Source: a candidate division WWE3 bacterium GW2011_GWB1_41_6
GTDB taxonomy: Bacteria > Patescibacteriota > WWE3 > UBA101185 > UBA10185
DNA length: 64,000 bases
Direction: 5' to 3'
Assembly (NCBI GenBank): GCA_000997355.1
Contig: LCBS01000001.1
Span: 5,191-69,190 of the forward strand
Below, piece after piece: positions 28,833 through 44,608 of the stretch (the stretch's first letter is position 1; every line of letters starts with the position of its first letter). Under the pieces are notes generated by a model. That model had not been told where the DNA came from. It did not search any database and worked only from the letters and a program-made list of their open reading frames with translations. The position numbers and the translations under genes are program-made.

Positions 28833-29924
28833 ATGAACAAAAAAATATATATACTGCCGCCTTTACTTACTTTATTTTCCCTCGCTTTATTTATTCCAAA
28901 AGCCTCAGCAGACTTTATAATCACATCTCAAGGTGACGTTATTTATACATCCCAAGGTGAGGTACTCGGAAAAGACGATGCCAAGAACGTTAAACCGCAG
29001 GTAAGTCAAGGCAACAGCGCAGCTTCAACCGGAAAAGCTCCTAAGATTACTAAGATCGAAAGGAACGGAACGAAAGTTAAAATGACAATCCAGGATGAGG
29101 ATGGAATTGAACTTGAAGTAATGGAAAGTGAAGATAGTGCAAATATTACGATAGAGGAATCAAATAGAAAAAACGATGTTAAGGTTAAATCACTTGGTAA
29201 TTCTTACGCGATAATTCAAAATAAAACTGCTGTTCAAACCAGATTCCCTCTTTCAGTAGATCTTGAGACGAACGAACTCCTCGTGAACACACCTGCCGGT
29301 CAAAAGACCGTTTCAGTTATGCCCGATAAAGCTGTACAGAATATGCTCGCTGCCAATGTTCTGGACCAGGTCGGGGGCAAAGGCGGTTTATCCTGGGTTA
29401 ACCGTTTGATGGTTCAAACCCAAGAAACTTCTTCATCAAGCGAATCTCCGGAAATGACCAGATTGAGGTTAAGAACAAGGATAGAGGAAACCAGCGGTTC
29501 TATAATTCCATTTGGCGCAACACCTTTGAATATGGACCACTGCAAAAACTACGGATGGGTGACGTTTACGGCACCTGAGTTCAAGAACCAGGGACAGTGC
29601 GTAAGCTACGTAGTTACAGGTGGCAAGAACTGGGAGAATGCTGAACCCGAAGTAGAACTCGCCGATGCCGCTGAATCCAGCGAATCAAGTGAAACAAGTG
29701 TATCCGAAAATCTTGAACCATTAGCAAGTGAGGAATTCATCTCCTTAACAACAACTAAAAACGGCAAACTCGGTTATAAGATACCGGGAGTCAAATATGA
29801 AAAGTTCTTATGGGTCTATGAAGTACCGTTAGAAAGAAACGTTACGGTGTCAGCAGAGACCGGAGAACTCTTGGAAATGGAACAATCATTCACAACGAAC
29901 ATCGTAGATGCCCTGTCTTTTTAG
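28833..29924 (+). CDS. secreted hypothetical protein
   Basis: Signal peptide; no motif. Confidence 0.45.
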   Translation: MNKKIYILPPLLTLFSLALFIPKASADFIITSQGDVIYTSQGEVLGKDDAKNVKPQVSQGNSAASTGKAPKITKIERNGTKVKMTIQDEDGIELEVMESEDSANITIEESNRKNDVKVKSLGNSYAIIQNKTAVQTRFPLSVDLETNELLVNTPAGQKTVSVMPDKAVQNMLAANVLDQVGGKGGLSWVNRLMVQTQETSSSSESPEMTRLRLRTRIEETSGSIIPFGATPLNMDHCKNYGWVTFTAPEFKNQGQCVSYVVTGGKNWENAEPEVELADAAESSESSETSVSENLEPLASEEFISLTTTKNGKLGYKIPGVKYEKFLWVYEVPLERNVTVSAETGELLEMEQSFTTNIVDALSF

Positions 29925-29968: not shown

Positions 29969-30694
29969 GTGAAAATGAAGTACTTAGATCAAAAAGGCTT
30001 TTCACCTATCCTAATGGTATTATTAGTGGGCCTTGTGTTCGCGTCTTCTATGGCTTTAACCAAAGTCATGAAAGATAACAGCAACCCCAGCGCTACAGCA
30101 GGATCAGGTGGTAAAGGAAACGGAGCGCCAAGCGGTCCTCACTTTAATCTTAATATTATCGGCGTCCCCAAAGCTAAAACAACCGACATGACCGGAGGCG
30201 GAAGAATATTTGTTCCTCTTCAGGGAAAGTGTCAAATCAACCTAACTGAAAGTGCTGATACCAGTATGTATGTTACTGACGCTAACTGTACCGACGGAAA
30301 AGGCGGATTCCAACTCCCCAACCCCGACCCCGAAAATGACGGGATTACCGAATATTCGGTTTGGGTAAGAGCCAGAGGTAAGCCGGGAGGCTCATCATCA
30401 ACTACCGCATGCGGAGAGTTATATGATGAAGTTACAATGACCACCTCAACATACTGCTCAGTTTATAAAACAGTGGCGGTAAGAGATAAGGGTAAGGGTA
30501 ATTTTGCCGATGTCAGCAGAGAACTGCTTTATGTTTATGTTGACCTGACCGGTCCGGAGGGAGTACCCGACGGAGTACCCGAAAGATATAATTTGTTCAG
30601 CGACGCTTTGCAGAACTATTTCTGGGATTATGATAACAACGGCTTAAAGCTGTTACAAATGAGATTCTATCAGGTTCCAAGCGTTGTAGAATAG
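29969..30694 (+). CDS. signal-anchored secreted hypothetical protein
   Basis: N-terminal TM helix; Gly/Cys-containing beta-rich body. Confidence 0.45.
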   Translation: MKMKYLDQKGFSPILMVLLVGLVFASSMALTKVMKDNSNPSATAGSGGKGNGAPSGPHFNLNIIGVPKAKTTDMTGGGRIFVPLQGKCQINLTESADTSMYVTDANCTDGKGGFQLPNPDPENDGITEYSVWVRARGKPGGSSSTTACGELYDEVTMTTSTYCSVYKTVAVRDKGKGNFADVSRELLYVYVDLTGPEGVPDGVPERYNLFSDALQNYFWDYDNNGLKLLQMRFYQVPSVVE

Positions 30695-30710
30695 GTCAAA
30701 GATATCGAGT

Positions 30711-30750
30711 TAAAAAAGACCGGGCGTAATGTCCGGTCTTTTTGGTTTTT
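30711..30750 (+). terminator. rho-independent terminator
   Basis: agaccgggc gtaat gtccggtct hairpin followed by TTTTT. Confidence 0.5.
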
Positions 30751-30845
30751 AAATACCAAGCGTTTCAAAACAGTTGTTTACACATCTATTACGCATTCTT
30801 AATCATATACTAATAAAATGTGATAAGAATTGAATTACGTTAAAT

Positions 30846-31487
30846 ATGAACGGCGAAGATGAAAGAAGAATATTCGAAAACCGGTCAGCGGCCGGAAAGG
30901 AGCTGGCAGGAGAACTATACAAAAAACAATACAATGACCCGTATATTCTCGCACTCCCTCGCGGTGGAGTGCCTGTAGCGAGTGAAATTGCGTCTGTTCT
31001 AAAATCCCCAATCAACGTGATAATTTCCCGGAAAATTGGGGCTCCCGGTAATCCCGAATTTGCAGTTGGAGCGATTGCGGAGGGAGACGTTCTAATACTT
31101 AATAAGGAGGCAATACAACTTCACGGTTTTCCGGAAGACAAAATAAACGAGATCGCTGCCAAAGAGATTCAGGAAATGGAACGGCGTATATCTATGTACC
31201 GGAATAACGAATCCCTGCCAAGTCTTCGGAATCGAACTGTTGTTTTGGTTGATGACGGCGTGGCTACAGGCATTACCGCTCTAGCTGCTATAAAATCCAT
31301 CAGGAACTTTGGGGCGGATAAGATAATATTTGCAGCACCCGTATGTTCGTACGAATCATCCGAGCTGCTGAAAGAGCATGTGGATGACTTGATTTATCTT
31401 ATTAAACCTATGTATATGTTAGCGATCGGGCAGTATTATCAAAGCTTTGAACAAGTAACGGATGAGGTGGTGGTGGAACTTTTATGA
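30846..31487 (+). CDS. type I phosphoribosyltransferase-domain protein
   Basis: PRPP-binding loop VVLVDDGVATGIT. Confidence 0.6.
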   Translation: MNGEDERRIFENRSAAGKELAGELYKKQYNDPYILALPRGGVPVASEIASVLKSPINVIISRKIGAPGNPEFAVGAIAEGDVLILNKEAIQLHGFPEDKINEIAAKEIQEMERRISMYRNNESLPSLRNRTVVLVDDGVATGITALAAIKSIRNFGADKIIFAAPVCSYESSELLKEHVDDLIYLIKPMYMLAIGQYYQSFEQVTDEVVVELL

Positions 31488-31532
31488 GAGACTAGGTGAG
31501 ATCAGCCGCACACCTGCAACCGAACCTTAGTA

Positions 31533-32873
31533 TTATTTACTTTTGTGTATGGGAAGGTTGAAATAAAAAGTGGATCCTTTGCCTTTGGCGCTTTCGACCC
31601 ACATTGTGCCCCCGTGGTTCTTAATAATTTCATGAGATACGTATAAACCTACGCCTAACCCTGAAAAACTATTCTCGACTTCTTTTACTCTGTAATACTT
31701 TTCAAATATCTTGTTGTGCATATTCTTGTCGATTCCGATCCCAAAATCTTTCACTGAAATGGTTACATAATCACTATCCTTTACAACATCGACAATAATA
31801 TCTTTTGATTTCGGGGAGTATTTGATGGCATTGGTTAGCATGTTGTTAAGAACCTGCTCTATCCTTTGTTTGTCCACCTTTACTTTTACATGGGGTGATG
31901 ACTTTTGTACAATCTTATGTTTTTCCGATGTGGGCTGAACCGAGTAAATACTGCTCTTGATAATACTATCAATATCAACAACTCCCATCTCATACTCTAC
32001 TATGCCTGACTGGATTTTAGAGATATCCAGTAAGTCTCCAATTAATCTGCTAAGTCTATTAGTGTATGTTAAAGCTTTATTTAAGTAAGCATCTCTTTTC
32101 TGTGCGGGTGCTTTTTTAAGCTCACGTTCTAATAGCTGCAAGTTTAATTTAAGACTTGTCAAAGGTGTTTTTAATTCATGGCTGGCTACACTAATAAACT
32201 CGTCTTTTCTTTCTTCTATCATCTTTCTTTCGGTTATATCGTTCCTTATAGCTATGAACTGGAAAGGCCTCCCCTTTTCATCCAGAAACGGCGTTATAGT
32301 AGTAGCAACCCAATAAAAGTTTCCTTCTTTATCTTTGTTCTTTAGTTCCCCATGCCAAACTTTCCCCGATAAGATCGTGTCCCAAAGGTCTTTCATAAAT
32401 ACTTTGGAATGGTATTTGGAATTTATCACCCGGTGCGTCTTACCTATCAACTCCTCACGGGAATACTTGGATATTTCAGTAAACTTTTGATTGACGTGAA
32501 GAATGATACCATCCTTATCCGTAACAGCGACTATTGAGGACTGATCAACGGCATACTTTATATCTGATAATTCTTTAACTATTTGTTCGTAGGTTTTCTT
32601 TGTGCTTGCCCAGTTGTATGGTACATCTTTGTGGTTATGGATAAATTCTTCGGGATCCAAGGGATTTTTGATAACCGTATTCAGATCATTTTCAGTAAAC
32701 TTCCAGACACCCCGGTGTCCTATTTTTATTCCGGGTAAGTATCCTCCCTGCGCCCATCTGCGGACAGTACTGGTACTAACCCCCAGATATTCAGAGGCAG
32801 CTTTTACTCCCATTTTTCTGCTTGTCAGGTTCTCCATTTTATTAGGCATAATAGTCAAATCTACGACCGTCAA
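31533..32873 (-). CDS. histidine kinase with N-terminal MerR/excisionase-type HTH, PAS, HisKA and HATPase domains
   Basis: AASEYLGVSTSTVRRWAQGGYLPGIKIG HTH; H-box SVASHELKTPL; GLGVGLYV; no TM helix. Confidence 0.7.
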   Translation of the reverse strand: MTVVDLTIMPNKMENLTSRKMGVKAASEYLGVSTSTVRRWAQGGYLPGIKIGHRGVWKFTENDLNTVIKNPLDPEEFIHNHKDVPYNWASTKKTYEQIVKELSDIKYAVDQSSIVAVTDKDGIILHVNQKFTEISKYSREELIGKTHRVINSKYHSKVFMKDLWDTILSGKVWHGELKNKDKEGNFYWVATTITPFLDEKGRPFQFIAIRNDITERKMIEERKDEFISVASHELKTPLTSLKLNLQLLERELKKAPAQKRDAYLNKALTYTNRLSRLIGDLLDISKIQSGIVEYEMGVVDIDSIIKSSIYSVQPTSEKHKIVQKSSPHVKVKVDKQRIEQVLNNMLTNAIKYSPKSKDIIVDVVKDSDYVTISVKDFGIGIDKNMHNKIFEKYYRVKEVENSFSGLGVGLYVSHEIIKNHGGTMWVESAKGKGSTFYFNLPIHKSK

Positions 32874-32979
32874 TATTTATATCATACGAAAGTCTCTTAT
32901 CAAAATAAAACAATACGCATTACTTCTAATGGTCGTCTATTGGGGGAAAGTGATTTTCTATTTTAAGGCTCCGGATACG

Positions 32980-34368
32980 TTAGAGGACTGTGATGATAGC
33001 GGGATCTACCATACCCATCGAACATGTGATCTTATATGTTCCGGCTTTAGGCGTAAATTTAAAAGTATTCATTCCGGGTTTTAATGTAACAATACCGGGA
33101 TATAAACCGCGAGCGGAAACTGATTGGCCGCATCCGTAGACTCCACTGTTATAAAACTCCCACACAACCGGTACCCCTGCTTTTAATGTTGCTTTCTTTG
33201 GATAATATTCAAATCCGGCAGCTTCCATTTGCAGGTATTGTATATCATTAGCGGCAATCTGCTTCGATCCGAGAACTTTTTTGTCTACCGATCTTGCCAA
33301 GCTCAAGGGCCTAATCTTAATGTCACTAAGACTTTTAAAACCAAGTAAGTTCAGTTGGGAATTAAGTGTATACAACGCAAAGAATGCTACCAACACACCC
33401 GAAAACAGACTAAACCGTGCCGATGCCTTGGAATTGTTCAATAACTTAACACTCGAAAAACTTATAAGTGCAAGCACCGGCAATGTTCCAAGTACGAACG
33501 CAAGTAACATGATACTGCTGGTAACAAAACTGCCGGAGGCCAAAGCCGAAGTCTGGGCCATTAAAGTAAATCCGCAGGGAAGAAAGAAAGTCAAAGCACC
33601 AACTGTAAAGGGCATATACTTACCTTTGAACTTTGTTTCGTCGGCTACATAATTCGTGAGACTTTTCGGCATACGAAGACGTATCTTCTGAGCCCACCCA
33701 ACACCGATCATTTGCAACCCAAGGGTAAACATTATCAATGAGATGAATATTGCCAGAGCTGCCGTTGATACTTGTGAAAATCTAAAAAAGCTTCCCACAA
33801 CACCGAGTAAACCGCCAAAAACCAAAAACGATAAAATTCTGCCCAGGTTAAACAGTATGAATGGTGTAAAGCTTTTTTTACTGTTACCTCCGTAGATTTC
33901 ATTCCACTGTTTTGATAAAGACAAAAGTAGTCCGCCTACTAAAGCCGCACAGCTCGAAAAACCGGCAGCCAGTCCGAATACAAAAAATGTTGCGTACGAA
34001 GAGGTTTCATTTACCGACATTCTCAGAAATAGCCCTGATCTTTGTATATATAAGAAACTGATAATAAACAGGATAGTAAAAACCGTTATTTTGGCGAAAT
34101 CCTTTGTGTTTAAAGTCTTTTGCGTTATGGGATTTGCCGAGAATGTATAACCGGCATCTTTAAAAGTCTTATTCAAGTGATCTAAACCGGGCACACTCTT
34201 ACTATCTTCCGCCAATATTTCAACTTTACCCGAACCAACCTTGGCACGCACGTCACAAACACCTTTATGTGACGCAACTTCTTTTTCAACAAGAGTCTCG
34301 CAGGAACTGCAGTGCATTCCTTTTATGTAATATGTTCTCTTAAATTTTCCTTGCGAAACGTTTTTCAT
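32980..34368 (-). CDS. HMA-domain / polytopic membrane / C-terminal cupredoxin-like fusion protein
   Basis: N-terminal MHCSSCE heavy-metal-associated motif; ~8 TM helices; C-terminal beta domain ending GTYKITCSMGMV. Confidence 0.5.
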   Translation of the reverse strand: MKNVSQGKFKRTYYIKGMHCSSCETLVEKEVASHKGVCDVRAKVGSGKVEILAEDSKSVPGLDHLNKTFKDAGYTFSANPITQKTLNTKDFAKITVFTILFIISFLYIQRSGLFLRMSVNETSSYATFFVFGLAAGFSSCAALVGGLLLSLSKQWNEIYGGNSKKSFTPFILFNLGRILSFLVFGGLLGVVGSFFRFSQVSTAALAIFISLIMFTLGLQMIGVGWAQKIRLRMPKSLTNYVADETKFKGKYMPFTVGALTFFLPCGFTLMAQTSALASGSFVTSSIMLLAFVLGTLPVLALISFSSVKLLNNSKASARFSLFSGVLVAFFALYTLNSQLNLLGFKSLSDIKIRPLSLARSVDKKVLGSKQIAANDIQYLQMEAAGFEYYPKKATLKAGVPVVWEFYNSGVYGCGQSVSARGLYPGIVTLKPGMNTFKFTPKAGTYKITCSMGMVDPAIITVL

Positions 34369-34430
34369 ATTTAGTTTCGGTTAATTAAAAGCATACCATA
34401 TCGAAAACCATTGTATCAGTTTACTACCGC

Positions 34431-34459
34431 TTGACATTACCTATACCCCGTATTAGTAT
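34431..34459 (+). promoter_or_regulatory. candidate sigma70-type promoter, with a CsoR operator candidate in the spacer
   Basis: TTGACA, then a 17-nt spacer (ttacctataccccgtat), then TAGTAT; the ATG lies 7 nt downstream, so the transcript would be leaderless. Confidence 0.35.
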
Positions 34460-34466
34460 TGCATTT

Positions 34467-34733
34467 ATGGATATCGATAGAACATCAATTTCACATAGAC
34501 TTAAAATAGTTGCCGGACAAATAAACGGTTTGGCTAAGATGATTGAGGAGGATAAGTATTGTATTGATATACTTAATCAATCTCTTGCTGTACAAAAAGC
34601 GTTAAAAGAAGTTGATAAAAAAATCCTGGAAAATCACCTGGACACGTGTGTGGTCGACCAAATGAAAAACGGCGAGGAGGCAAAAGCCCGGGGAGAGTTG
34701 CTAAAGATATTTTCCTTAACCAATAAAAATTAA
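34467..34733 (+). CDS. csoR: copper-sensing repressor, CsoR/RcnR family
   Basis: DUF156 fold with the C ... H ... C triad (YCIDILNQS ... ENHLDTCV); the ATG start is chosen over the TTG at 34431. Confidence 0.65.
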   Translation: MDIDRTSISHRLKIVAGQINGLAKMIEEDKYCIDILNQSLAVQKALKEVDKKILENHLDTCVVDQMKNGEEAKARGELLKIFSLTNKN

Positions 34734-35327
34734 ATGAACGAAAAGAAAGCCCTATACATAATAATTGCCTTACTTTTGATTACAAACGTCATTGTGTTGT
34801 TCTCTTCTTTAGGAAGGAACTTTTCGTACTTCCCGGTGATGGGAACGGGCATGTTGGGTAGATACTTTTACAGCAGTAATAACAACCAATCAGACAGTGA
34901 CTGGAAAAGCCATATGAATGATTTTGACACTTGGGATCAATTGGTACGTCATATGCAGGAGGAGCACTCGGATATATACCACAGAAGTATAAACACTAGT
35001 GTCCCGGCTGTAGAAACCCATAAAAGTACTCATGACTTTGGAAAGGTAAGTAAAAGCAATGGAACTGTCAGCACCGTCTTTGTTTTGGAAAATCATGGTA
35101 AGACTCCGTTGGAATTTTCCAATCTATCTACATCGTGCGGATGTACCACGGCTGAACTTAGCAATTCAATCGTTAATTCTGATGAAACTACTAACCTGAC
35201 TGTGACTTTTGACCCTAATTTCCACGACGAACCGGTCGGACGTTTCAAACGGTCGGTGTTTGTAAAAACCAACGATCCGGCAGTCTCTGAAATGCACTTT
35301 GATATTTTTATAGAAATCATTGATTAA
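34734..35327 (+). CDS. DUF1573-domain protein (membrane-anchored)
   Basis: HDFGKV ... SCGCT ... VTFDP signature. Confidence 0.5.
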   Translation: MNEKKALYIIIALLLITNVIVLFSSLGRNFSYFPVMGTGMLGRYFYSSNNNQSDSDWKSHMNDFDTWDQLVRHMQEEHSDIYHRSINTSVPAVETHKSTHDFGKVSKSNGTVSTVFVLENHGKTPLEFSNLSTSCGCTTAELSNSIVNSDETTNLTVTFDPNFHDEPVGRFKRSVFVKTNDPAVSEMHFDIFIEIID

Positions 35328-35343
35328 ATGAAAGGTTTTAAAA

Positions 35344-35838
35344 ATGAATAATAAGTTCGTTATTTTTATTTCTATAGTTTCCGTTCTAATACTTGGGATA
35401 GGAATTGTCGCTGCAACCAGCAAAACTCCTCCTCAGTTGGAGCAAACCGATGGGGCAAAACTGGAATTCGTTGGAGATAAGACATTTGACTGGGGAATCA
35501 TAGACATAAACGGAGGTATTGTAGAAAAAATATTCACAATTAGAAACGCGGGTGAAACCGATCTACTAATGACGAACGTAAAAACCTCATGTATGTGCAC
35601 GGAAGCACAGGTAATAATTAACGGTGAAGCAAGTCCCGCGTTCCAAATGCACGCGCAGTCGTCATGGAAAGGCACTGTCAAACCGGGCGAAGAAGCACAG
35701 ATCAGAGTAGTATTTGATCCTCTTTTCCATGGACCTACCGGTACGGGACCGATAACGAGGTTAATAGGATTTGATACGAACGATAGAAATAATGCTACGG
35801 GAGAATTAACAGTAACAGCTGTCGTAGCTAAAAAATAA
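35344..35838 (+). CDS. DUF1573-domain protein (membrane-anchored)
   Basis: FDWGII ... TSCMCT ... VVFDPLFHGP. Confidence 0.55.
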   Translation: MNNKFVIFISIVSVLILGIGIVAATSKTPPQLEQTDGAKLEFVGDKTFDWGIIDINGGIVEKIFTIRNAGETDLLMTNVKTSCMCTEAQVIINGEASPAFQMHAQSSWKGTVKPGEEAQIRVVFDPLFHGPTGTGPITRLIGFDTNDRNNATGELTVTAVVAKK

Positions 35839-35842
35839 TTAT

Positions 35843-36829
35843 TTGAAAGAAATTAAAAAAATGGCCGCTCCAAAAATACTAGAAAAACTTTTAGGTGGGA
35901 TTGTTAGGATACACAAAATATCGGTTCCCCTGACGTTGACACTGATATTTACTTTTAACACTACATTGGGCGCGGTATTGATCCAGAACTACTATTATAA
36001 GTTCAAAATTAGAGAGTTAATTGCCTACAAAGAGGCGTTGGATGGGCAGGGTGAGAACTCTCCTGAAAAGATCGCGGAAAGGCTAGCGGGAGACGTGATC
36101 CCTTATGAAGGTGTTGATACCGGAATAAAGTGGGGAGATCTTGGAAAGCGGCTCGTGCAGATAGGCGCAATAGATGAAGAAAAGTTCGCTAAGGCCTTCA
36201 ATTCACCTCTTGATAGTAAAGAGTATCAGAGTGTTTTGAACGGTACGAACGAAGGAACGATCATCATAAATGAAAGTAATTCCCGGTTCGTGCTGGACGT
36301 TCTTTGGGCTTTTGGATTAGCACAAAAGAGCGTAGTTTATAACGAGGGCTACATGGCCGAAAAGGCAGACGAGGTAAAAAATCTCGCCAGTACAGGAGGC
36401 TGGACGTTGGGGACAAAAAAACCAATGGAGATCTACAATAAACACGACCTTATTAGCCTAACCGACGAACAGCACAGCGTGGTCAGAAGAATAGCATCCA
36501 ATATTTACAGACCGTGCTGCAATAACCATACCGCCTTCCCGGACTGCAACCACGGCATGGCTCTTCTTGGCTTAATAGAATTAATGGTCGCCAACGGATA
36601 CTCAGAAGAGAAAATCTACGACTTGTCGCTAAAAGTGAACGCATATTGGTTCCCAAACCAATACCTGACTATTGCCCATTATCTTGAAACAAAGCAGAAT
36701 ATAAAGTGGAAGGATGCTGATCCCAAGATGGTTCTTAACAAATCATATTCAAGCGGATCCGGCTTCAAAAACATTCAGGCACAGGTTGAAGGTTTGCCCG
36801 CACAAGGCGGAGGAAGCTGTGGAGCATAA
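35843..36829 (+). CDS. membrane-anchored Cys/His-rich protein (possible PCYCGC-like metal-binding domain)
   Basis: RPCCNNHTAFPDCNHGMALLG cluster. Confidence 0.35.
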   Translation: MKEIKKMAAPKILEKLLGGIVRIHKISVPLTLTLIFTFNTTLGAVLIQNYYYKFKIRELIAYKEALDGQGENSPEKIAERLAGDVIPYEGVDTGIKWGDLGKRLVQIGAIDEEKFAKAFNSPLDSKEYQSVLNGTNEGTIIINESNSRFVLDVLWAFGLAQKSVVYNEGYMAEKADEVKNLASTGGWTLGTKKPMEIYNKHDLISLTDEQHSVVRRIASNIYRPCCNNHTAFPDCNHGMALLGLIELMVANGYSEEKIYDLSLKVNAYWFPNQYLTIAHYLETKQNIKWKDADPKMVLNKSYSSGSGFKNIQAQVEGLPAQGGGSCGA

Positions 36830-36844
36830 GCCGCGTATAACAAT

Positions 36845-37696
36845 ATGAACGAAGCAATACTTTTTCAAACATCAATAATTGCCGCTTTCCTTGCCGGGAT
36901 GGTCGCACTATTCGCACCATGCTGTGTGTCGTATCTCTTGCCCGCTTATCTTGGATCGGTCTTTAAGGAACGGAAAAGAGTCCTGTTCATGACACTTGTG
37001 TACTCGCTTGGAATCTTTATTGTAATGATCCCGGCAGTGCTGGGAGCAAAGATCATATCTACTATGGTTTTCAGGTATCACTCCCCTATCTATGTTATAG
37101 GCGGTATCGTGATGATAATCGTGGGAATAGTATCTTTGCTTGGGCTCAAGTTACCGATGATAAACCTGAATAAAGAGGGTAAGCAGGGTACGGATGTGGC
37201 CTCGGTTTTCACTCTGGGTGTATTTTCAGGGATCACCAGTTCATGCTGTGCTCCGGTTTTGGCAGGGGTATTGACATTGAGTTTTTTGTCTCCTTCAATA
37301 TGGCAGGCTTTGCTTATCGGGTTCGTCTATGTGCTTGGCATGGTCACCCCTCTGTACATAGGTTCATACTTCCTCGACTCAAAGAAAGTCCTGGGTATGA
37401 CCTTCTTCAAAAAGAAGGTAACTGATCTGAAGATATTGTCTAAAAGTTTTCATATAGTCATGGGTAACCTAATATCATTCTTCATATTCACTATTACGGG
37501 AATCCTAATTATTTACCTGACATTGGCTACGGATTTTTCCATGGCCGAAATGGCAGGAGGTTTTTCCGGTGGTATAAACAATTTCGCCTTGATATTAAAT
37601 AGAATACCCTACGCCGAATACATTTTCGGGGGTTTGATACTTCTATTTGCAGGGCTGATACTTAAGCATGCACTTTCAACAAAAGATGAAAGTTGA
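36845..37696 (+). CDS. CcdA/DsbD-family thiol-disulfide membrane protein
   Basis: FAPCCVSYLLP in TM1 and SSCCAPVLAG in TM4. Confidence 0.5.
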   Translation: MNEAILFQTSIIAAFLAGMVALFAPCCVSYLLPAYLGSVFKERKRVLFMTLVYSLGIFIVMIPAVLGAKIISTMVFRYHSPIYVIGGIVMIIVGIVSLLGLKLPMINLNKEGKQGTDVASVFTLGVFSGITSSCCAPVLAGVLTLSFLSPSIWQALLIGFVYVLGMVTPLYIGSYFLDSKKVLGMTFFKKKVTDLKILSKSFHIVMGNLISFFIFTITGILIIYLTLATDFSMAEMAGGFSGGINNFALILNRIPYAEYIFGGLILLFAGLILKHALSTKDES

Positions 37697-38126
37697 ATAC
37701 TTAACGACGATCCCATATTTCATCATCGGGAGTTCCTCACTGCTACTGCTGTACATAGGAGTAATGAGGTTAAGTACGGGAAGTATGTCCGTGACGGTGA
37801 GTCAATTCAACTACTACTTGCCCTGGATCGTTGCGTTATCGGGAGGGTTTGGGCTGCAAGCCGCACTTTATAAATTAACAAAGATAATGCAAAAGGGCAT
37901 AGCGGACGCCGGTAAAATTGCAAAAACAACAGGCGTCACAAGTTCGGTAACAATGATAGCTTGCTGTGTACATCACGCGGCAGATGTTATACCTATTTTG
38001 GGTCTATCTGCAGCGGCGGCGTTTCTGGGTGTGTATACTAAGGAACTTTTTGCTGTTGGAATATTATTCAATATATTTGGTATTGTTTATATGCTAAAAA
38101 ATTTACGGGGGTTAAAAAATGCGTAA
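37668..38126 (+). CDS. small polytopic membrane protein with an intramembrane CCxHH motif
   Basis: TMIACCVHHAADVIPILG. Confidence 0.4.
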   Translation: MHFQQKMKVEYLTTIPYFIIGSSSLLLLYIGVMRLSTGSMSVTVSQFNYYLPWIVALSGGFGLQAALYKLTKIMQKGIADAGKIAKTTGVTSSVTMIACCVHHAADVIPILGLSAAAAFLGVYTKELFAVGILFNIFGIVYMLKNLRGLKNA

Positions 38127-38538
38127 AATAGAACTTTTAACAGGAATTATATCTTTGCTGTTACTGGCTATTCTGGTGATAGTGCTGATAGATCCCTTCT
38201 CCGGTTCGACGGATACGGAAGGGGCAAAAGGTGTCTTCGAAACGCAAACCGTAAGTATGGGTGACATACAGATAGAGATCACCCCCAAAAGTCTTTCGGA
38301 CTACCGTGTGACTTTCAATACACATGTTGTTGAACTTGATTATGACTTTATGGAATTGTTCACACTGACTGATGATAAAGGAAACGAAATGAAACCAATC
38401 AAATGGACCGGAGGGCGTGGTGGCCATCACTTATCGGGAATACTTCTATTCAATGTATTGCGCGATGATACAAAAAACGTAATTTTAAAATTAGGTAAAA
38501 TAGAAGATAATGAACGAAGTTTTAAATGGGAGAAGTAA
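38119..38538 (+). CDS. membrane-anchored extracytoplasmic hypothetical protein
   Basis: TM helix plus a ~110-aa soluble domain with GGRGGHH. Confidence 0.4.
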   Translation: MRKIELLTGIISLLLLAILVIVLIDPFSGSTDTEGAKGVFETQTVSMGDIQIEITPKSLSDYRVTFNTHVVELDYDFMELFTLTDDKGNEMKPIKWTGGRGGHHLSGILLFNVLRDDTKNVILKLGKIEDNERSFKWEK

Positions 38539-38541
38539 TAT

Positions 38542-38892
38542 ATGATCGTTAATGTAATTGTAATTATTTTAATAATCGGGACTTATGTGTTCTTTTTTAT
38601 GAAAAAGGAGAGTAAGGCCGTTGCTGTGGGAAATCAGGTTGAAATAATGGTTTCTGGAGGTTATAAACCTGATGTGATCAGGGTAAAAAAAGGAAGTCCG
38701 GTCACATTGAAGTTCAACCGCAAAGATCCTTCCTCTTGCCTTGAAGAACTTGTCATACCGGATTTCGGCAAGAACATAAAATTGGCACTTGGAGAAATAA
38801 CAAGTGTTGAGATTACACCTAGTGAGCCGGGCGAATTTCAGTTCCACTGTGGTATGAATATGTACCACGGCCGGATTTTAGTGGAGAATTAA
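38542..38892 (+). CDS. cupredoxin-like copper-binding protein (membrane-anchored)
   Basis: [18 protein letters not shown] matches the type-1 copper-site pattern. Confidence 0.55.
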
Positions 38893-38896
38893 TAAT

Positions 38897-41116
38897 ATGA
38901 AAAAAGATTTTCACATATCAGGAATGCATTGCGCCAGCTGTGCAATGAATATAAAGAGCGTACTTAATAAAGTACCGGAATTAAAGAACGTGGAGGTAAA
39001 TTTTGCCAGTGAACAGGCATCGGTTGAACATGACGGGGATTTCCCTAAAGACAAGGTCGGCAGTGCCGTAGAATCACTTGGGTACAAAGCTCATTTTGAT
39101 GAAGATAACAAAGACCAAACTCCTGAAGACGCGGCAGAATTGGAGTCAAAGAGAGAATTAAATGAACTAAAGACTAAATTAACATGGAGCACTTTCTTTA
39201 CTGTATTACTTTTGATAGGGGCAATGTTCATACAAGCCCCCGAAGTTCTTAGAAACCCCTGGGTCATGCTCATATTTGCTACACCCGTACAGTTCTGGGT
39301 GGGCGCTCAATATTATAAGAGCATGTGGGCATCGCTGAAAAATAGACTTGCCAACATGGATACTCTTATCGCGATAGGAACTTCGGTAGCGTATTTCTTT
39401 TCTTTAGCCGTGCTGCTTTTTGAAGAACAGCTGATACAGTTAGGTATCGAGCCACACGTTTACTTTGAGGTTTCCGCAACTATCATCACGCTTATACTTC
39501 TGGGCAAATATCTGGAAAAAAGAGCCAGGGGTCAGGCATCCTCAGCAATCAGAAAATTGCTGGACCTGCAGGCAAAGAACGCAACAGTGGTCCGGGACGG
39601 AAAAGAAATAATGATTCCCGTTGATCAAATCGTAGTAGGCGATACGATCATTGTAAAACCCGGAGAAAAACTTCCAATAGACGGTGAGATCATAAAGGGC
39701 GAGACATCTATAGATGAAAGTATGGTTACAGGTGAAAGCCTGCCCGTGGAAAAAGGCGTGGGCGCCAAAGTCATAGGAGCGACCGTGAACAAGAGCGGCT
39801 CAATAAGGATAGTAGCTACTAAAGTTGGTGAAAATACTTTGCTCGCACATATTATAGAAACCGTCAAACGCGCCCAGGCATCACGGGCACCCATCCAAAA
39901 ACTTGTAGATAAAATATCATCGGTGTTCGTCCCTATCGTTATTATTCTTGCATTGATCACGTTCCTTATGTGGTTCAACTTTGGTCCGGAACCTGCGTTC
40001 GTCCGGGGATTGGTTAGTTTGATCTCGGTTTTGATAATTGCGTGCCCTTGCGCTTTAGGTTTAGCCACTCCAATGTCTATTATGGTAGGAACGGGTAAGG
40101 GTGCCGAGAACGGCATCCTTATAAAAGATGCGGAAGCTTTGGAGGTTGCTAACAAAATAAATTATATTGTTTTCGACAAAACCGGGACTTTGACATACGG
40201 CAAGCCCGAAGTCGACGGTTTCGAAATAGTCGCGCGCGATACCGATCCTCAGTTCATAAAAAACGCTATTCTTGCCGTGGAAAAATTGTCACATCATCCG
40301 CTGGCCGAAGCTGTTGTGAGATATTTATCAAACGACACTGAGGTACCTGAAGCCGAGGGGTTTGTAGATAGGTCAGGCTTTGGTGTAAAAGCAACCGTTA
40401 ACGGCAAACCGGTTCTGATCGGAACAAAAAAACTAATGGAAAGTGAAAATATTGAGGTTACAAAAGAGGCTGATAAACTCGCGGAGGGCTGGAGAGATAA
40501 AGCCCGCACTGTTTCTTACGCAGCTATTGATAATAAAATAGCAGCATTGATAGGTATATCCGACTTAGTCAAACCAAACGCAAAAGAAGTTGTAGCCACG
40601 TTGAAAAAAATGGGCATCACACCCGTAATGATAACCGGTGATAACGCAAAAACGGCAAAAGCTATCGGGGAACAATTGGGAATTCAAGAAATCCTCTCTG
40701 AAGTCCTTCCTCAGGATAAAGCAAATAAAGTGAAGGAACTGCAGGAGGGCGCTAAAGTGGTGGCAATGGTAGGTGACGGAATTAACGACGCTCCGGCACT
40801 GGCAACCGCAAATATAGGTATCGCCATGGGCGAAGGAACTGACGTTGCGATCGAATCATCCGGGGTGACATTGCTGCGGGGTGATATATCACTGGTTCCA
40901 AAAGCAGTGAACCTATCAAAGTCGACTGTAAAGAATATTAAGCAAAATCTGGCTTGGGCGTTCGGATACAACGTTATTCTGATACCCGTAGCTATGGGTG
41001 TACTATATCCACTATTCGGAATATTACTTAACCCAATCCTGGCAAGCGGTGCCATGGCATTATCAAGCGTTTCGGTAGTTGTTAACGCCCTTAGACTCAG
41101 GACAAAAAAACTCTAG
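38897..41116 (+). CDS. copA: copper-translocating P1B-type ATPase
   Basis: [18 protein letters not shown] ([12 protein letters not shown]), [15 protein letters not shown]. Confidence 0.9.
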
Positions 41117-41130
41117 AATTCTTGACTTTA

Positions 41131-41170
41131 ATAAAAAAGGGAGCAGTCGTAGATCAATACTGCTCCTTTG
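41131..41170. terminator. bidirectional intrinsic terminator
   Basis: A-tract, then GGAGCAGT / ACTGCTCC stem with an 11-nt loop, then T-tract. Confidence 0.5.
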
Positions 41171-41177
41171 ATGAACG

Positions 41178-41468
41178 TCACTCCCGCTGATCGACATTTA
41201 CTGCTTCCCAAACCCACCTGGCCTTCATCTGGTACATGGCAGGTGATTCCAACGACCTGAGCAAGATACTTGTTTTGGCCGGAATATTCTTACACGCTCT
41301 ATAATCCGCCAATAAATTGTTGAATTGTGAGGCCGACTCTACATCAAAAACACAGAGCACGCCATCTACCATAACCCTATCACCTTTTCTTACGGGTTTA
41401 GGTTTTTGCTGACACACTTTTCCGAATTCCTTTAATACCTCGGGAATATTAATACATAGTGGAGGCAT
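41178..41468 (-). CDS. small hypothetical protein downstream of the RT
   Basis: Internal ATG with RBS aaaggagag is preferred over the track's GTG start at 41513; about 96 aa; GC-richer. Confidence 0.35.
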   Translation of the reverse strand: MPPLCINIPEVLKEFGKVCQQKPKPVRKGDRVMVDGVLCVFDVESASQFNNLLADYRACKNIPAKTSILLRSLESPAMYQMKARWVWEAVNVDQRE

Positions 41469-41554
41469 TCCAGTCTCTCCTTTCGTATCCCCTACCTTAT
41501 TGCCGGTATACACTTTTGCTATGTAATTCTACCATTGGACGTTCTGCACATTTA

Positions 41555-41592
41555 AAAAAAGGAGCAATGCTTTTTCAAGCTGCTCCTTTCTA
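41555..41592 (-). terminator. intrinsic terminator after the RT gene
   Basis: GGAGCA-at-GCTT tttc AAGC-TGCTCC hairpin with T-run on the minus strand. Its flanks are nearly identical to the hairpin at 41131. Confidence 0.45.
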
Positions 41593-41594
41593 TG

Positions 41595-42599
41595 TTAGAA
41601 CATTCTGGAGTTATGGAACGACGTAACCAGCCTTTCCAGCAACTCAGGGGTTCCTCTCACCTTTCCAAAATACTGCTGGAACAACCCGATGAAGTATGCA
41701 AGCTTGGCCCTGTCTTCCGGAGATAGTTTTTCCGGGTTGGTAGTCTTATATACCTGAGAAACCCAAGTCAGGATACCAAGAATCTGCTTTCTGTACACTT
41801 CAGGCGTTGGACTTGACAGTGCCTCGTTCAATAACAAAACGTACGCATCCAGCTTGTCAGGGTCCAGCTCTAGTCTATCCTCATATACATGTGTTCCGAG
41901 ATACGATATCGGCATGTGTTCAAAACCCGCCGACCAACTTACCTGAAAATCATGCATTGAGATTATCTTTGCTACTGCCCTGTCTACCGCCCACAGATTT
42001 ACGGGTTTATCGAAAGAGAAACACATGTTATCGGCATACCTTGTATACGCTCTTAGCGGGAAGTTACCTAGGATAGCCAGTAAATCTTTGTCCATCGGAT
42101 CCACAACGGCGTTAAAAACATATGGTGTAGATACACATCCCTGTGGAGTAGTTCCTTCATACGTGAGCAGGGTGGCTATCAGTAAACGGACCTCCTTTGA
42201 CATCTTCCGGAACCTTCTTTCCAATAGCTTGTAAATCTTCTCCTTTGTCACATGATCGAAAGCATCCTTTAAATCAACCACTAATGCGGTTTTTGCTCCC
42301 TGGTGCGGTTTGATCGCGGGAATTATACCTTTGCCGGTATAGCAATAATCGGCACTTCCGCCGAATGTTTTTACAAACCACGACGCAAGTATCGACTGAA
42401 CATAAACCAGATCTTTTGTAGCCGGAACGATCCTTCTCTTTCCTCCACTTTTCTTTTTTACATAGAAGGGTTTCAAATATCGTTCCCTTTCGGCTAGTGA
42501 CACCAGTCTTGAGATTGTATTCCGGTACCTGACAAGTTCCTTGTCAAAAGACGGTGTCGTATTCTCTGCCATAGACCAGATAATACTCTCTACGAACAT
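41595..42599 (-). CDS. reverse transcriptase (compact, retron/group-II-like finger-palm)
   Basis: RT motifs 1-2 KKKSGGKRRIVPATKDLVYVQ, A VVDLKDAFDHV, B TPQGCVSTPYVFN, C YTRYADN (N where the second catalytic Asp is expected). Confidence 0.75.
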   Translation of the reverse strand: MFVESIIWSMAENTTPSFDKELVRYRNTISRLVSLAERERYLKPFYVKKKSGGKRRIVPATKDLVYVQSILASWFVKTFGGSADYCYTGKGIIPAIKPHQGAKTALVVDLKDAFDHVTKEKIYKLLERRFRKMSKEVRLLIATLLTYEGTTPQGCVSTPYVFNAVVDPMDKDLLAILGNFPLRAYTRYADNMCFSFDKPVNLWAVDRAVAKIISMHDFQVSWSAGFEHMPISYLGTHVYEDRLELDPDKLDAYVLLLNEALSSPTPEVYRKQILGILTWVSQVYKTTNPEKLSPEDRAKLAYFIGLFQQYFGKVRGTPELLERLVTSFHNSRMF

Positions 42600-42645
42600 C
42601 TCTGCTCTCCTTTTTCTATATCTTCTTTTGTTTTATGAACGCCAA

Positions 42646-43323
42646 CTAACCGGACATTTCAATTGACGCTCTCCTTACTCCACCCGCGCCTCTTAACAAT
42701 AGCAATAGCACGACCCCCGTCACAAAACCCCCGACATGAGCTCCATATGCAATGCCTCCCGTTTCAGCAATCCCGATCGTTCCCAGTCCTGCTAAAAATT
42801 GAAATAAAAACCAATACAACAACATCGTGTATGCCGGAACGGTAATTATCCTTACCACAAAGCCAAAGAATACAAGAACATCGATCCCGTGGCGCGGGAA
42901 CAGTACCAGATAGCCTCCCATTATTCCCGCAATTGCTCCGGAAGCTCCCAGGTTCGGGATACCGGATGCGGGGTTTAAAAATATCTGTAGCGCTGTTGCC
43001 CCTAAACCGACCAGTATATAGAAAAACAAATATTTTATCGAACCCAAACGATCCTCGAGATTGTCCCCGAAAATATATAAAAATAACATATTCCCAAAAA
43101 GATGTCCCAAACTACCATGAAGGAACATGGATGTTACAAGTGTATAAAGATTTTGGCCGTTAACAACCAGGTTTGGTATCAAAGCATACTGATTTACGAA
43201 CATTTCCAGTCCGGGCTCTGACATTCCAAACATAAAAAAGAAGACGGCAATGTTAATGCCAAGCAATAGAAAATTCAGTATAGGTATTTTTCCCGATGGT
43301 GTATGGTCTTTTATTGGCAGCAT
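42646..43323 (-). CDS. rhomboid-family intramembrane serine protease
   Basis: FLHGSLGHLFGNM, GASGAIAG (GxSG) and AHVGGF catalytic histidine; 6 TM helices. Confidence 0.7.
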   Translation of the reverse strand: MLPIKDHTPSGKIPILNFLLLGINIAVFFFMFGMSEPGLEMFVNQYALIPNLVVNGQNLYTLVTSMFLHGSLGHLFGNMLFLYIFGDNLEDRLGSIKYLFFYILVGLGATALQIFLNPASGIPNLGASGAIAGIMGGYLVLFPRHGIDVLVFFGFVVRIITVPAYTMLLYWFLFQFLAGLGTIGIAETGGIAYGAHVGGFVTGVVLLLLLRGAGGVRRASIEMSG

Positions 43324-43431
43324 ATGTTTTTAGTCACTTTCTAGTATTTATACTATCTGTGTATTGATAAGGTTTCTTTAAAAAAGTGTTGCTGTTGTGA
43401 TAAAACCAAAAAAAGACCTCCGGACTATTTT

Positions 43432-44006
43432 TTAATCCGGAGGTATACGCGTACCATTAAAGTAAGCATCGATCTCCCGTACATTGTTTACCCGGAATTC
43501 CCAACCTTTTGGACTAATCGTTTTGATGGTGAGAACACCGGCATTCTTATCCCATCGTACGTTGTTGATGTCAAAGACAAGAGGATTGGAATTAAGTATA
43601 TGGTGATGTCCCCAGTTTCTACACCATTTTACCGCCTCCTGAAGATCAGGGAGAGTTAACACGGCTACCTCTCACGACAAAACATTCGCAGGAAACTCAA
43701 AACTTGATTCTTCAATGTTGGGTTCTTTTTTATCTCCCCCGCCCCGCGGCCAACAAAATACTGAACAGGTTGTGCTCTTCCAAGCTCTTCCTGTACTCTA
43801 GAGGCTAAGCCGTAGTGAGTCTCCGCCGCAAGGTAGCTGAAATCCACAAAGTTAATTTTCGGCAGACTCATATATGCACCTAACGGTTTGACAAAAATAT
43901 CGTCGCCGGATTCCAGATCCTGAGACGTATTGTACCCTATTACTACAACCCGCGCCTTACCTTCACCAACAGGTTCAAAAATCTCATATTGCCCAATGAA
44001 CGTCAT
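43432..44006 (-). CDS. two abutting small ORFs (113 aa and 76 aa, 2-nt gap, different frames); possibly a split gene
   Basis: ORFs 43665..44006 and 43432..43662; no motif. Confidence 0.3.
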
Positions 44007-44097
44007 TGTATTTACTCTCCTTTTATCTTATTCACCAGATTCGTTAAGCGTAATATACTATTAATAATAACTTATAACAAATTCCTGCCCCCAAGCA

Positions 44098-44511
44098 TTG
44101 AAAGTTATGAGTATCTATCCGTGTAAAGGAGAAGCAATGAGCAGATTAGTATGGTTACGGGCGAATATCAAATGCCATAGAGGATGCCGCACTTTCAGAT
44201 ACGTGGCTGAACTGGTGGCTACCGCCGCACTTGCGGGAGGTGCCAAAGAGTGTGGAAAAGCTCTGTTCCTGGAAGTTACAGAGGATGCTGTATCAAGGTG
44301 GGAAAAAAACACCTGGATGAAACCGGGCGATATTCGCCGGTTGAAGCTCCTCCGTGATGCAATTGCTAGTGATCTTGAAAACCGTCCAAATACTGCGGCT
44401 AAAGACTATAGAACCGTCGCGAGAGAAACAAATGGTCGTGTACCGTACGCATTGACACGGAAACGCGCTTTGATGAAAGTCGGCTCCCAGTTCGTAAAAG
44501 GTGAGATTTAA
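44098..44511 (+). CDS. basic hypothetical protein (GC-rich)
   Basis: 137 aa, Arg/Cys-rich N-terminus, clearly higher GC than the window average. Confidence 0.35.
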   Translation: MKVMSIYPCKGEAMSRLVWLRANIKCHRGCRTFRYVAELVATAALAGGAKECGKALFLEVTEDAVSRWEKNTWMKPGDIRRLKLLRDAIASDLENRPNTAAKDYRTVARETNGRVPYALTRKRALMKVGSQFVKGEI

Positions 44512-44521
44512 CTGTATTTAC

Positions 44522-44557
44522 AAAGCCCTCTGTATCCACCAGACGGGCTTTTTTTAT
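44522..44557 (+). terminator. rho-independent terminator
   Basis: gccctctg ... cagacgggc hairpin followed by TTTTTTT. Confidence 0.45.
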
Positions 44558-44608
44558 TCCACTTTCATTTTGGTTGAATAAAACCCGAACACCTGATAAC
44601 ATCATCGC

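Follow-up and report, generated by a model that had tools for sequence, protein, structure and literature searches.

What becomes of Cu(I) at the outer face of a bacterium that is bounded by a single membrane? The question is raised by a copper locus at positions 32980-41116 of a stretch of 64,000 nucleotides (the window, from contig LCBS01000001.1) of the genome of candidate division WWE3 bacterium GW2011_GWB1_41_6, a member of the Candidate Phyla Radiation (CPR). An earlier note on this DNA, made from the letters alone, described ten genes of copper and thiol homeostasis here, and all ten open reading frames are present. Nine of them lie on the + strand in the order csoR, C, D, E, F, G, H, I and copA, with intergenic gaps of at most 16 nucleotides or else overlaps of 8-29 nucleotides, which is the layout of a single predicted transcription unit; the tenth, A, is divergent and shares with csoR a 98-nucleotide intergenic region. 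The answer that we favor, with a confidence only slightly better than even, is a two-layer copper defence in which an efflux core of CsoR, a CupA-type chaperone and CopA is joined by a module of Cu(I)-binding proteins on the outer face, kept reduced by a CcdA homologue. The ten genes are:

32980-34368, - strand: gene A, an HMA domain (4.8e-9), one transmembrane helix, a DsbD_2 core of six transmembrane helices (2e-27) and a CupA-like domain (weak Cupredoxin_1 match)
34467-34733, + strand: csoR, a CsoR/RcnR-family repressor of 88 residues (PF02583, 2.6e-24; best NCBIfam match RicR, 8.5e-20)
34734-35327, + strand: gene C, a DUF1573 protein with a transmembrane anchor, a His/Asp/Met-rich linker and an Ig-like domain with SCGCT (PF07610, 1.4e-19)
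35344-35838, + strand: gene D, a DUF1573 protein with an N-terminal anchor and an Ig-like domain predicted to face outward (PF07610, 1.7e-11)
35843-36829, + strand: gene E, an N-terminal anchor and a mostly helical domain predicted to face outward (no Pfam or NCBIfam family)
36845-37696, + strand: gene F, a CcdA homologue with six core transmembrane helices plus one (weak NCBIfam DsbD match, 1e-3)
37668-38126, + strand: gene G, about four transmembrane helices with CCVHH (no Pfam match)
38119-38538, + strand: gene H, an N-terminal anchor and a beta-rich domain predicted to face outward (weak DUF5643 match, 2e-5, below the Pfam cut-off)
38542-38892, + strand: gene I, a CupA-type membrane-tethered Cu(I) chaperone (Cupredoxin_1, 1.1e-22)
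38897-41116, + strand: copA, a P1B-1 Cu(I)-exporting ATPase with one N-terminal HMA domain (NCBIfam CopA equivalog, 1e-199; TIGR01511, 2e-188)

The first layer (CsoR, the CupA-type protein I and CopA) is assigned by homology. The csoR frame is open from a TTG at 34431, and the ATG at 34467 is taken as the most likely start because gene callers give a product of 88 residues. This product matches PF02583 with 85.8 bits (cut-off 22.8) and carries the x-C-H-C fingerprint of the family as KYC...ENHLDTC, of which the YC, the H and the C are conserved in 46 relatives; by this signature it is a predicted Cu(I)-sensing repressor of the CsoR type. A persulfide sensor of the CstR type, considered in view of the rhodanese fusions described below, was rejected since the His of the fingerprint is conserved. 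CopA scores 627 bits against TIGR01511 (cut-off 397) and has DKTGT, CPC in the fourth transmembrane helix (TM4), YN in TM5, MxxSS in TM6 and GMHCASC in its HMA domain. The x-C-H-C signature of CsoR and the P1B-1 motifs CPC, YN and MxxSS of CopA bear out the copper operon that had been proposed.

Protein I, which the earlier note called simply a cupredoxin, does have that domain, and its identity can be refined to that of a cytoplasm-facing homologue of CupA. It matches pneumococcal CupA (2MRY/4F2E) at a phmmer E-value of 3.2e-26 over residues 32-115, and the metal-binding domain of pneumococcal CopA (4F2F) at 3.4e-11. The copper ligands C66, C103, M105 and M107 (Cys...C-x-M-x-M) are invariant or 96% conserved among 25 relatives. 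Its transmembrane helix occupies residues 1-19 and is followed by KKESK, and 21 of the 25 family members have more lysine plus arginine after the helix than before it, from which the domain is predicted to lie on the cytoplasmic face; all topology calls in this work rest on hydropathy and on the positive-inside rule applied to such lysine plus arginine counts. CupA itself has been described as facing the cytoplasm (PMC7558416). The gene ends 4 nucleotides before copA. The suggestion that the soluble chaperone had been replaced by extracytoplasmic Cys proteins must accordingly be given up: a chaperone is present, because protein I is a CupA homologue predicted to be cytoplasmic, and the outer-face proteins are additions to it. 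Other chaperone-like domains also occur, namely the cytoplasmic, CopZ-like HMA domain of A and a separate 70-residue HMA gene in many relatives.

The second layer comprises several anchored proteins rich in conserved Cys and His that are predicted to face outward, in agreement with the membrane-anchored extracytoplasmic Cys proteins of the earlier note. Proteins C and D score 70.4 and 44.4 bits against the DUF1573 family of Pfam (cut-off 26.1) and carry the motifs SCGCT and SCMCT, and C additionally matches the OS_HP2 (seleno)protein family at 8.6e-13. In D, C83-x-C85, M102 and H129 are invariant across 67 relatives. The charge bias of DUF1573 proteins is N-in (38 versus 11), and some members of the family are selenoproteins in which the CxC site reads UGC. 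Searches of PDB sequences with D and H returned nothing significant.

For protein E, 35861 is the most likely start, given a length of 322 residues for the database protein; E is 100% identical to a protein of WWE3 bacterium GW2011_GWA1_41_8. Its invariant residues are R-P-C225-C226-x-N-x-T-x-F-x-D-C235-N-H237-G and a tail, GGGxC326G, whose Cys lies in a Gly-rich, low-confidence C-terminal segment of the AlphaFold2 (AF2) model. That model is mostly helical, with a predicted local distance difference test (pLDDT) score of 88.8, and Foldseek finds no fold match for it in PDB (best E-value 0.6, TM-score below 0.2). Neither E nor any of 23 homologues matches a Pfam or NCBIfam family, and a search of PDB sequences with E found none. 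The family is nonetheless large, with 3759 homologues by word index, forming 687 clusters at 50% identity and present in at least 593 species genomes; among the matches listed, the homologues with meaningful names are all from CPR. By these comparisons, E is the founder of a new, Pfam-less family. A JGI label of "CcmH/NrfF" on some homologues is unsupported, as no consistent Pfam match is found among 23 members. As in DUF1573, the charge bias of E is N-in and C-out.

Protein F is the candidate source of reducing power. A single F sequence has no match in Pfam even at E=10; a profile of 31 family members matches CcdA of Thermus thermophilus (5VKV) at E=1.3e-13 over residues 6-219, spanning all six core helices, and F also aligns with the transmembrane domain of A (hhalign E=4.6e-5). 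The protein carries APC26C27 in TM1, SSC134C135AP in TM4 and H79 in an outer loop, and in 61 relatives C26 is conserved in 100%, C135 in 98%, C27 and C134 in 70% each, and H79 in 97%. Since the profile matches 5VKV and both catalytic Cys positions are conserved, F is taken to be a genuine CcdA-type protein. The homology half of the proposed CcdA-like reductant conduit is thus upheld; whether electrons or metal would be carried is read from homology.

The product of the divergent gene A is predicted to be two-faced. Its HMA domain carries GMHCSSC, and 60 homologues share as invariants the HMA CxxC, C140 in TM1, C265 in TM4, and the external C413 and C449-x-M-x-M. In the AF2 model (pLDDT 86.5) the C-terminal domain has CupA (4F2E) as its best PDB match, with a TM-score of 0.81 and a root-mean-square deviation of 1.4 Å. 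The previously recognized order of HMA domain, membrane body and C-terminal cupredoxin-like domain therefore stands, but with seven transmembrane helices (1 + 6, predicted in 45 of 60 homologues) rather than about eight. Lysine plus arginine counts per loop in the family alternate (2.2, 1.2, 3.4, 0.3, 6.0, 0.1, 2.0, 0.4), and the HMA domain is therefore predicted to be cytoplasmic and the CupA-like domain external. Homologues of A number in the thousands, some from metagenome-assembled genomes (MAGs) of Actinobacteria, and databases call them "sulfite exporter TauE/SafE family protein", apparently in error. Some homologues, in CPR and in Actinobacteria MAGs, have two tandem external cupredoxin domains connected through a Gly/Cys-rich linker (P0204, P0216, L044 634-2418, L076 5327-7252). 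Another WWE3 genome (L094) has a minimal csoR-A-copA operon, with A in the usual position of copZ.

Proteins G and H form a pair, G always adjoining H. In 14 relatives, C99-C100-x-H102 in TM3 of G and H69, H103 and H104 of H are invariant; a homologue search with H found 3 proteins only. L060 encodes a fusion in which H follows the C-terminus of F, and the two therefore should act on the same membrane face. Fusions in relatives also join rhodanese to E, rhodanese to DUF1573, and E to a domain with several transmembrane helices, and together they tie DUF1573, E, F and H into one predicted compartment. The long E-family proteins of the last kind (450-550 residues; P0270, P0287, P0278, P0330, L038 19422-20771) have an N-terminal domain of several transmembrane helices, with G-C-x-V-C-G inside the membrane and no Pfam match. 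The similarity of G to this domain is weak (hhalign E=1e-3, probability 20%), with the CCxH of G aligned to the CxxC. The rhodanese fusions place a single rhodanese domain (CKSGNMS or CRSGNMS) N-terminal to E or DUF1573 in many CPR (L033 9527-10744, L058 651-1886, L043 9045-9818, L074, L002 4001-4765, P0254) and would put a sulfurtransferase-like Cys on the outer face, within the same module.

How widely these genes travel together was assessed with an E profile, by which loci were fetched from 80 species-level genomes, along with several metagenome contigs, and scored with the window proteins; because many of the contigs are truncated, the counts should be read as minima. An arrangement that recurs across this whole sample is far from a chance one. 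Of 83 loci, 67 have a DUF1573 gene no more than 3 kb from E, and a CcdA of the F type occurs anywhere in the fetched locus in 62 of 86, while within 10 kb of E there is a copper P-type ATPase in 61 of 83 loci, CsoR in 42, an A-type protein in 26, a CupA-like protein in 25 and a G-H pair in 14. A review has confined CupA to a few streptococci (PMC7558416); with CupA-like proteins in 25 of 83 CPR loci, chaperones of this type are not streptococcal only. The earlier note counted a lack of copA/csoR in homologous clusters elsewhere as evidence against it; in most relatives the module adjoins csoR and copper ATPases, so the note withstands this check. Throughout CPR, DUF1573, E and a CcdA-like protein form a conserved module that accompanies copper ATPases. 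In the closest relatives the order is csoR-DUF1573-E-F-cupA-copA, and one of them, L084, also has a divergent HMA-DsbD_2 gene. Compared with these the window has an extra DUF1573 copy, gene C, which is missing from L084 and L085, and an inserted G-H pair.

The ATPases near E are of three kinds, all with YN and MxxSS/T: CPC with HMA (CopA), CPH with HMBD (CopB-like) and CPD with HMBD. Those of the CPD kind adjoin E in L067, L046, L058, L040, L035, L052 and L061, have an N-terminal HMBD (CPMHPE...CPKCGM) together with YN and MSxSS, and by these motifs look like an undescribed CPR subtype of P1B copper pump. Several small families also stand beside the module: DUF5676 of about 90 residues in 30 loci, a His/Met/Cys-rich membrane protein of 141 residues in 23, a protein of 180 residues ending in CCKE in 15, an HCPLC membrane protein in 14 and a C-x-x-C membrane protein of 146 residues in 11 (examples are L014 11908-12180, L083 1724-2149, L040 7360-7887, L044 6067-6507 and L030 154-696). 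VKOR genes occur in 10 related loci, and DsbA-like genes in 15 only, in the same neighbourhoods.

Is the operon under copper control? The signals flanking its two ends are:

34431-34459, + strand: promoter-like TTGACA-17-TAGTAT ahead of csoR, the sole 10/12 consensus match on the + strand of the region
34410-34437, - strand: divergent promoter-like site for gene A, ATGTCA-16-TACAAT with an upstream TG (9/12 with the TG), called by consensus match alone
41137-41169, no strand assigned: hairpin between the convergent copA (+) and an open reading frame at 41178-41513 (-)

The -35 hexamer of the gene A promoter overlaps that of the csoR promoter and abuts an operator-like element at 34437-34453, which is exactly the spacer between the -35 and -10 hexamers of csoR and has the sequence TTACCTATACCCCGTAT. 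An imperfect 9-3-9 dyad spans 34438-34458. In many relatives csoR leads the series csoR-DUF1573-E-F-..., and the promoter ahead of it contains a canonical CsoR box: their spacers read ATACCC(C)-N2-4-GGGGTAT, an operator-type box with two forms, ATACCCC-N2-GGGGGTAT and ATATCCCC-N3-GGGGGATAT, and that of L084 is ATACCCGTACGGGGTAT. The window element keeps the outer TAC...GTA arms with the G tract replaced, and a canonical C4-N-G4 CsoR box, sought in the whole window, was found nowhere. The degenerate sequence is real, since it is identical in eight independent assemblies, by which assembly error is ruled out as its origin. The CsoR element claimed for 34437-34453 thus has its position supported by the boxes of the relatives, but the box itself lacks the G tract, and binding of CsoR is therefore uncertain. 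At the other end, the RNA fold of 41105-41190 (-19 kcal/mol, z = -2.2) has an 11-bp stem with a run of A6 upstream and TTT downstream, and the hairpin is likely a bidirectional terminator that closes the operon.

These elements can be assembled into a two-layer scheme. A Cu(I) sensor of the CsoR type would control the operon; the CupA-type protein I, tethered at the inner face, would pass Cu(I) to CopA, and the P1B-1 pump would expel it. For the second layer, we infer that outer-face proteins handle Cu(I) with their thiols reduced by F. Their thiolate, thioether and imidazole ligands would retain Cu(I), whether it comes from the surroundings or has been expelled by CopA, and the proposed binders are C and D (C-x-C with Met and His), E (CC-x8-C-x-H with the Cys of its flexible tail), H (three His) and the external CupA-like domain of A. 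Protein F would pass reducing equivalents from the cytoplasm, such that ligand cysteines stay reduced in an oxidising envelope, and the DsbD_2 core of A may likewise supply reductant. Elsewhere, a protein of the DsbD type is known to support thiol proteins that bind Cu(I), as well as tolerance of copper (PMC10907172, PMC8900818, PMC3322552).

Several points weigh against this scheme. Copper binding by DUF1573, E, G and H is read from conserved residues, and vicinal CC and CxC motifs suit metal ligation and redox chemistry alike. The topologies are predictions, and in this genome the linker that follows TM6 of A is atypically basic. The window encodes no partner with a thioredoxin fold, the usual type of CcdA substrate, and Pfam finds no thioredoxin-like domain in the operon. 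In 17 of 86 loci, many on short contigs, E has no F, A or G nearby, and the operator without its G tract leaves copper control in this particular genome unassured. A bolder form of the two-layer defence, which we advance only tentatively and consider rather less than probable, is that DUF1573, E and F, often with G and H plus A, make up a CPR-specific outer-face machine that takes Cu(I) directly from pumps of the CopA and CopB types.

It is unlikely that the outer-face proteins serve copper-induced repair of envelope thiols alone, in which DUF1573 and E, reduced by F, would work as disulfide reductases or isomerases with no functional copper binding and would mend surface proteins whose cysteines copper had mis-oxidised. 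Much of the evidence above would suit such a role: F is a CcdA homologue with a catalytic Cys pair, DUF1573 selenoproteins have the UGC at the CxC site in a manner typical of redox catalysis, VKOR (10 loci) and DsbA-like genes (15 loci) recur nearby, the rhodanese fusions suggest thiol or persulfide chemistry, and Scs and DsbC provide a precedent (PMC10907172). On the other hand, the invariant Met and His beside the Cys of DUF1573 and E, and the three His of H, look like copper ligands; no thioredoxin fold is present; and the module is coupled very tightly to copper ATPases in particular rather than to envelope genes at large.

We regard as improbable a transmembrane metal relay, in which Cu(I) itself would travel through F (twin CC), G (CCxH) and the DsbD_2 core of A, between outer binders (DUF1573, E, H and the cupredoxin of A) and inner binders (the HMA domain of A and protein I). 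The scheme resembles MerP-MerT-NmerA and would amount either to ATP-independent export or to recovery of Cu(I) from the surface, which CopA would then export again. Vicinal Cys pairs within the membrane are typical of Mer transporters, and the DsbD/LysE superfamily includes metal transporters. Such pairs lie inside transmembrane helices in 70% of the F proteins and without exception in G; A has a di-Cys membrane core flanked on either face by a metal-binding domain and stands in the place of copZ in the csoR-A-copA operon of L094; and many relatives have E joined to a membrane domain that bears a CxxC within the membrane. However, the strictly conserved Cys of F are the two catalytic positions of CcdA, the extra Cys being dispensable in 30%, no similarity to MerT, MerC or MerF extends beyond the HMA domain, and import of Cu(I) merely to export it again would be futile. 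A last possibility, that the locus metalates cuproproteins, with the ATPase as a supplier like CopA2/CcoI and the thiol proteins acting like Sco, PCuAC or TlpA, can draw on a cupredoxin/plastocyanin-like gene a few kb away in L084 and on the need for CcdA/TlpA-type reduction in CuA assembly in other bacteria (PMC7558416), but is very improbable given a CsoR repressor with operators inside the promoter, which implies induction by excess copper, a detoxification-type chaperone (CupA) accompanying the ATPase, no cuproenzyme encoded in the window operon, and CPR genomes from which respiratory oxidases are largely missing (PMC8672522).

The two-layer defence can be set beside the copper systems already known. 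It shares with csoR-copZ-copA of Firmicutes and Actinobacteria (B. subtilis, M. tuberculosis) the x-C-H-C CsoR, a P1B-1 CopA with HMA, a single transcription unit (predicted here) and, in the relatives of the window, a canonical operator inside the promoter. It differs in that a free CopZ gene is lacking, with a CupA-type chaperone in its stead and an HMA domain fused to a membrane protein, in the six extra membrane or outer-face genes between csoR and copA, and in the missing G tract of this genome's operator. With copY-cupA-copA of S. pneumoniae it has in common a CupA homologue, protein I, with the same N-terminal anchor and C...C-x-M-x-M ligands for binuclear Cu(I), encoded directly upstream of copA. 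Here, however, the regulator is CsoR and not CopY, and a second CupA-like domain, that of A, is predicted to lie outside the cell. In the pneumococcus a cupredoxin-like domain of CopA pairs with CupA, whereas the CopA of the window has a classical HMA domain, and the CupA-CopA pairing must therefore differ.

The logic of the second layer is closest to that of Scs (ScsABCD of Salmonella, Proteus and Caulobacter), a copper-induced system (PMC10907172, PMC8900818, PMC3322552) in which a transporter of the DsbD superfamily supports extracytoplasmic, copper-protective Cys proteins, some of which bind Cu(I) tightly. In Salmonella, ScsB keeps ScsC, ScsD and CueP reduced, and the same logic would operate here with unrelated proteins. 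The proposed partners in the window are Ig-like DUF1573 proteins and a new helical family in place of thioredoxin folds, the transporter is of the minimal CcdA type that lacks the periplasmic domains of ScsB, and the genes reside within a CsoR efflux operon of a single-membrane cell. Pfam and NCBIfam detect neither thioredoxin folds nor ScsB-type extra domains in the window system, which is therefore an analogue of Scs in logic and not a member of it.

CopG of Gram-negative cop/cus loci, with a CxCC tetranuclear copper cluster, likewise combines extracytoplasmic copper resistance with closely spaced Cys and Met, and its gene is linked to copA (PMC7558416). Its fold is thioredoxin-like, in contrast to the helical domain of about 250 residues in E, which has no fold match in PDB, and no sequence similarity between CopG and E was detected. 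The mercury chain (MerP-MerT/MerC/MerF-NmerA) also places soft-metal ligands on both faces of the membrane, with transmembrane Cys pairs and HMA domains, but the transmembrane proteins of the window are of CcdA/DsbD and not MerT type, and its regulator and pump are copper-specific. Neither merR nor merA is present in the region, and only the HMA domains touch the MerTP model (27-33 bits; cut-off 180).

Around the locus lie other genes. Directly downstream of copA, a reverse transcriptase of 334 residues (41595-42599, - strand; RVT_1, 1.5e-13) could be of the retron, abortive infection (Abi) or diversity-generating retroelement (DGR) type; it is followed by the frame at 41178-41513 (- strand), of 111 residues and without a family. 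Adjoining A is a histidine kinase (31533-32873, - strand) with an N-terminal HTH_17/MerR-like domain and then PAS, HisKA and HATPase_c domains, and a link to the copper cluster is possible; L084, too, has a kinase, of GAF-PAS type, beside its HMA-DsbD_2 gene. Farther upstream are two secreted or anchored proteins, of 363 residues (28833-29924, + strand) and 241 residues (29969-30694, + strand), with no Pfam match. An Rfam scan of 30000-46000 found no RNA family. The idea that the region is an "island" of foreign origin has no support, its GC content (0.38-0.45) being like that of the remaining window.

A search of the literature turned up no account of the cluster or of PF13386, and on copper systems in CPR it yielded a mention of copA and nothing more. 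The cluster is not categorically new, because support of copper tolerance by the DsbD family and membrane-tethered chaperones are already known; what would be new is that a known logic of copper defence is carried by unrelated folds in CPR. At least four families without an assigned function (E, G, H and the CPR branch of DUF1573) are thereby tied to copper. The genomes of CPR are tiny, and hundreds of species keep a cluster of five to ten genes, so copper at the cell surface is likely a major stress for them. To our knowledge, the handling of Cu(I) after the pump is well described only for Gram-negative periplasms, and the proteins of this module are candidates for how single-membrane cells deal with Cu(I) once it has passed the pump. 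If the existence of the outer-face machine should prove true, its cysteine-bridged sites, kept reduced by a flow of electrons, would be the counterpart, in single-membrane, host-attached bacteria, of the periplasmic Cus, CueO, CopG and Scs systems.

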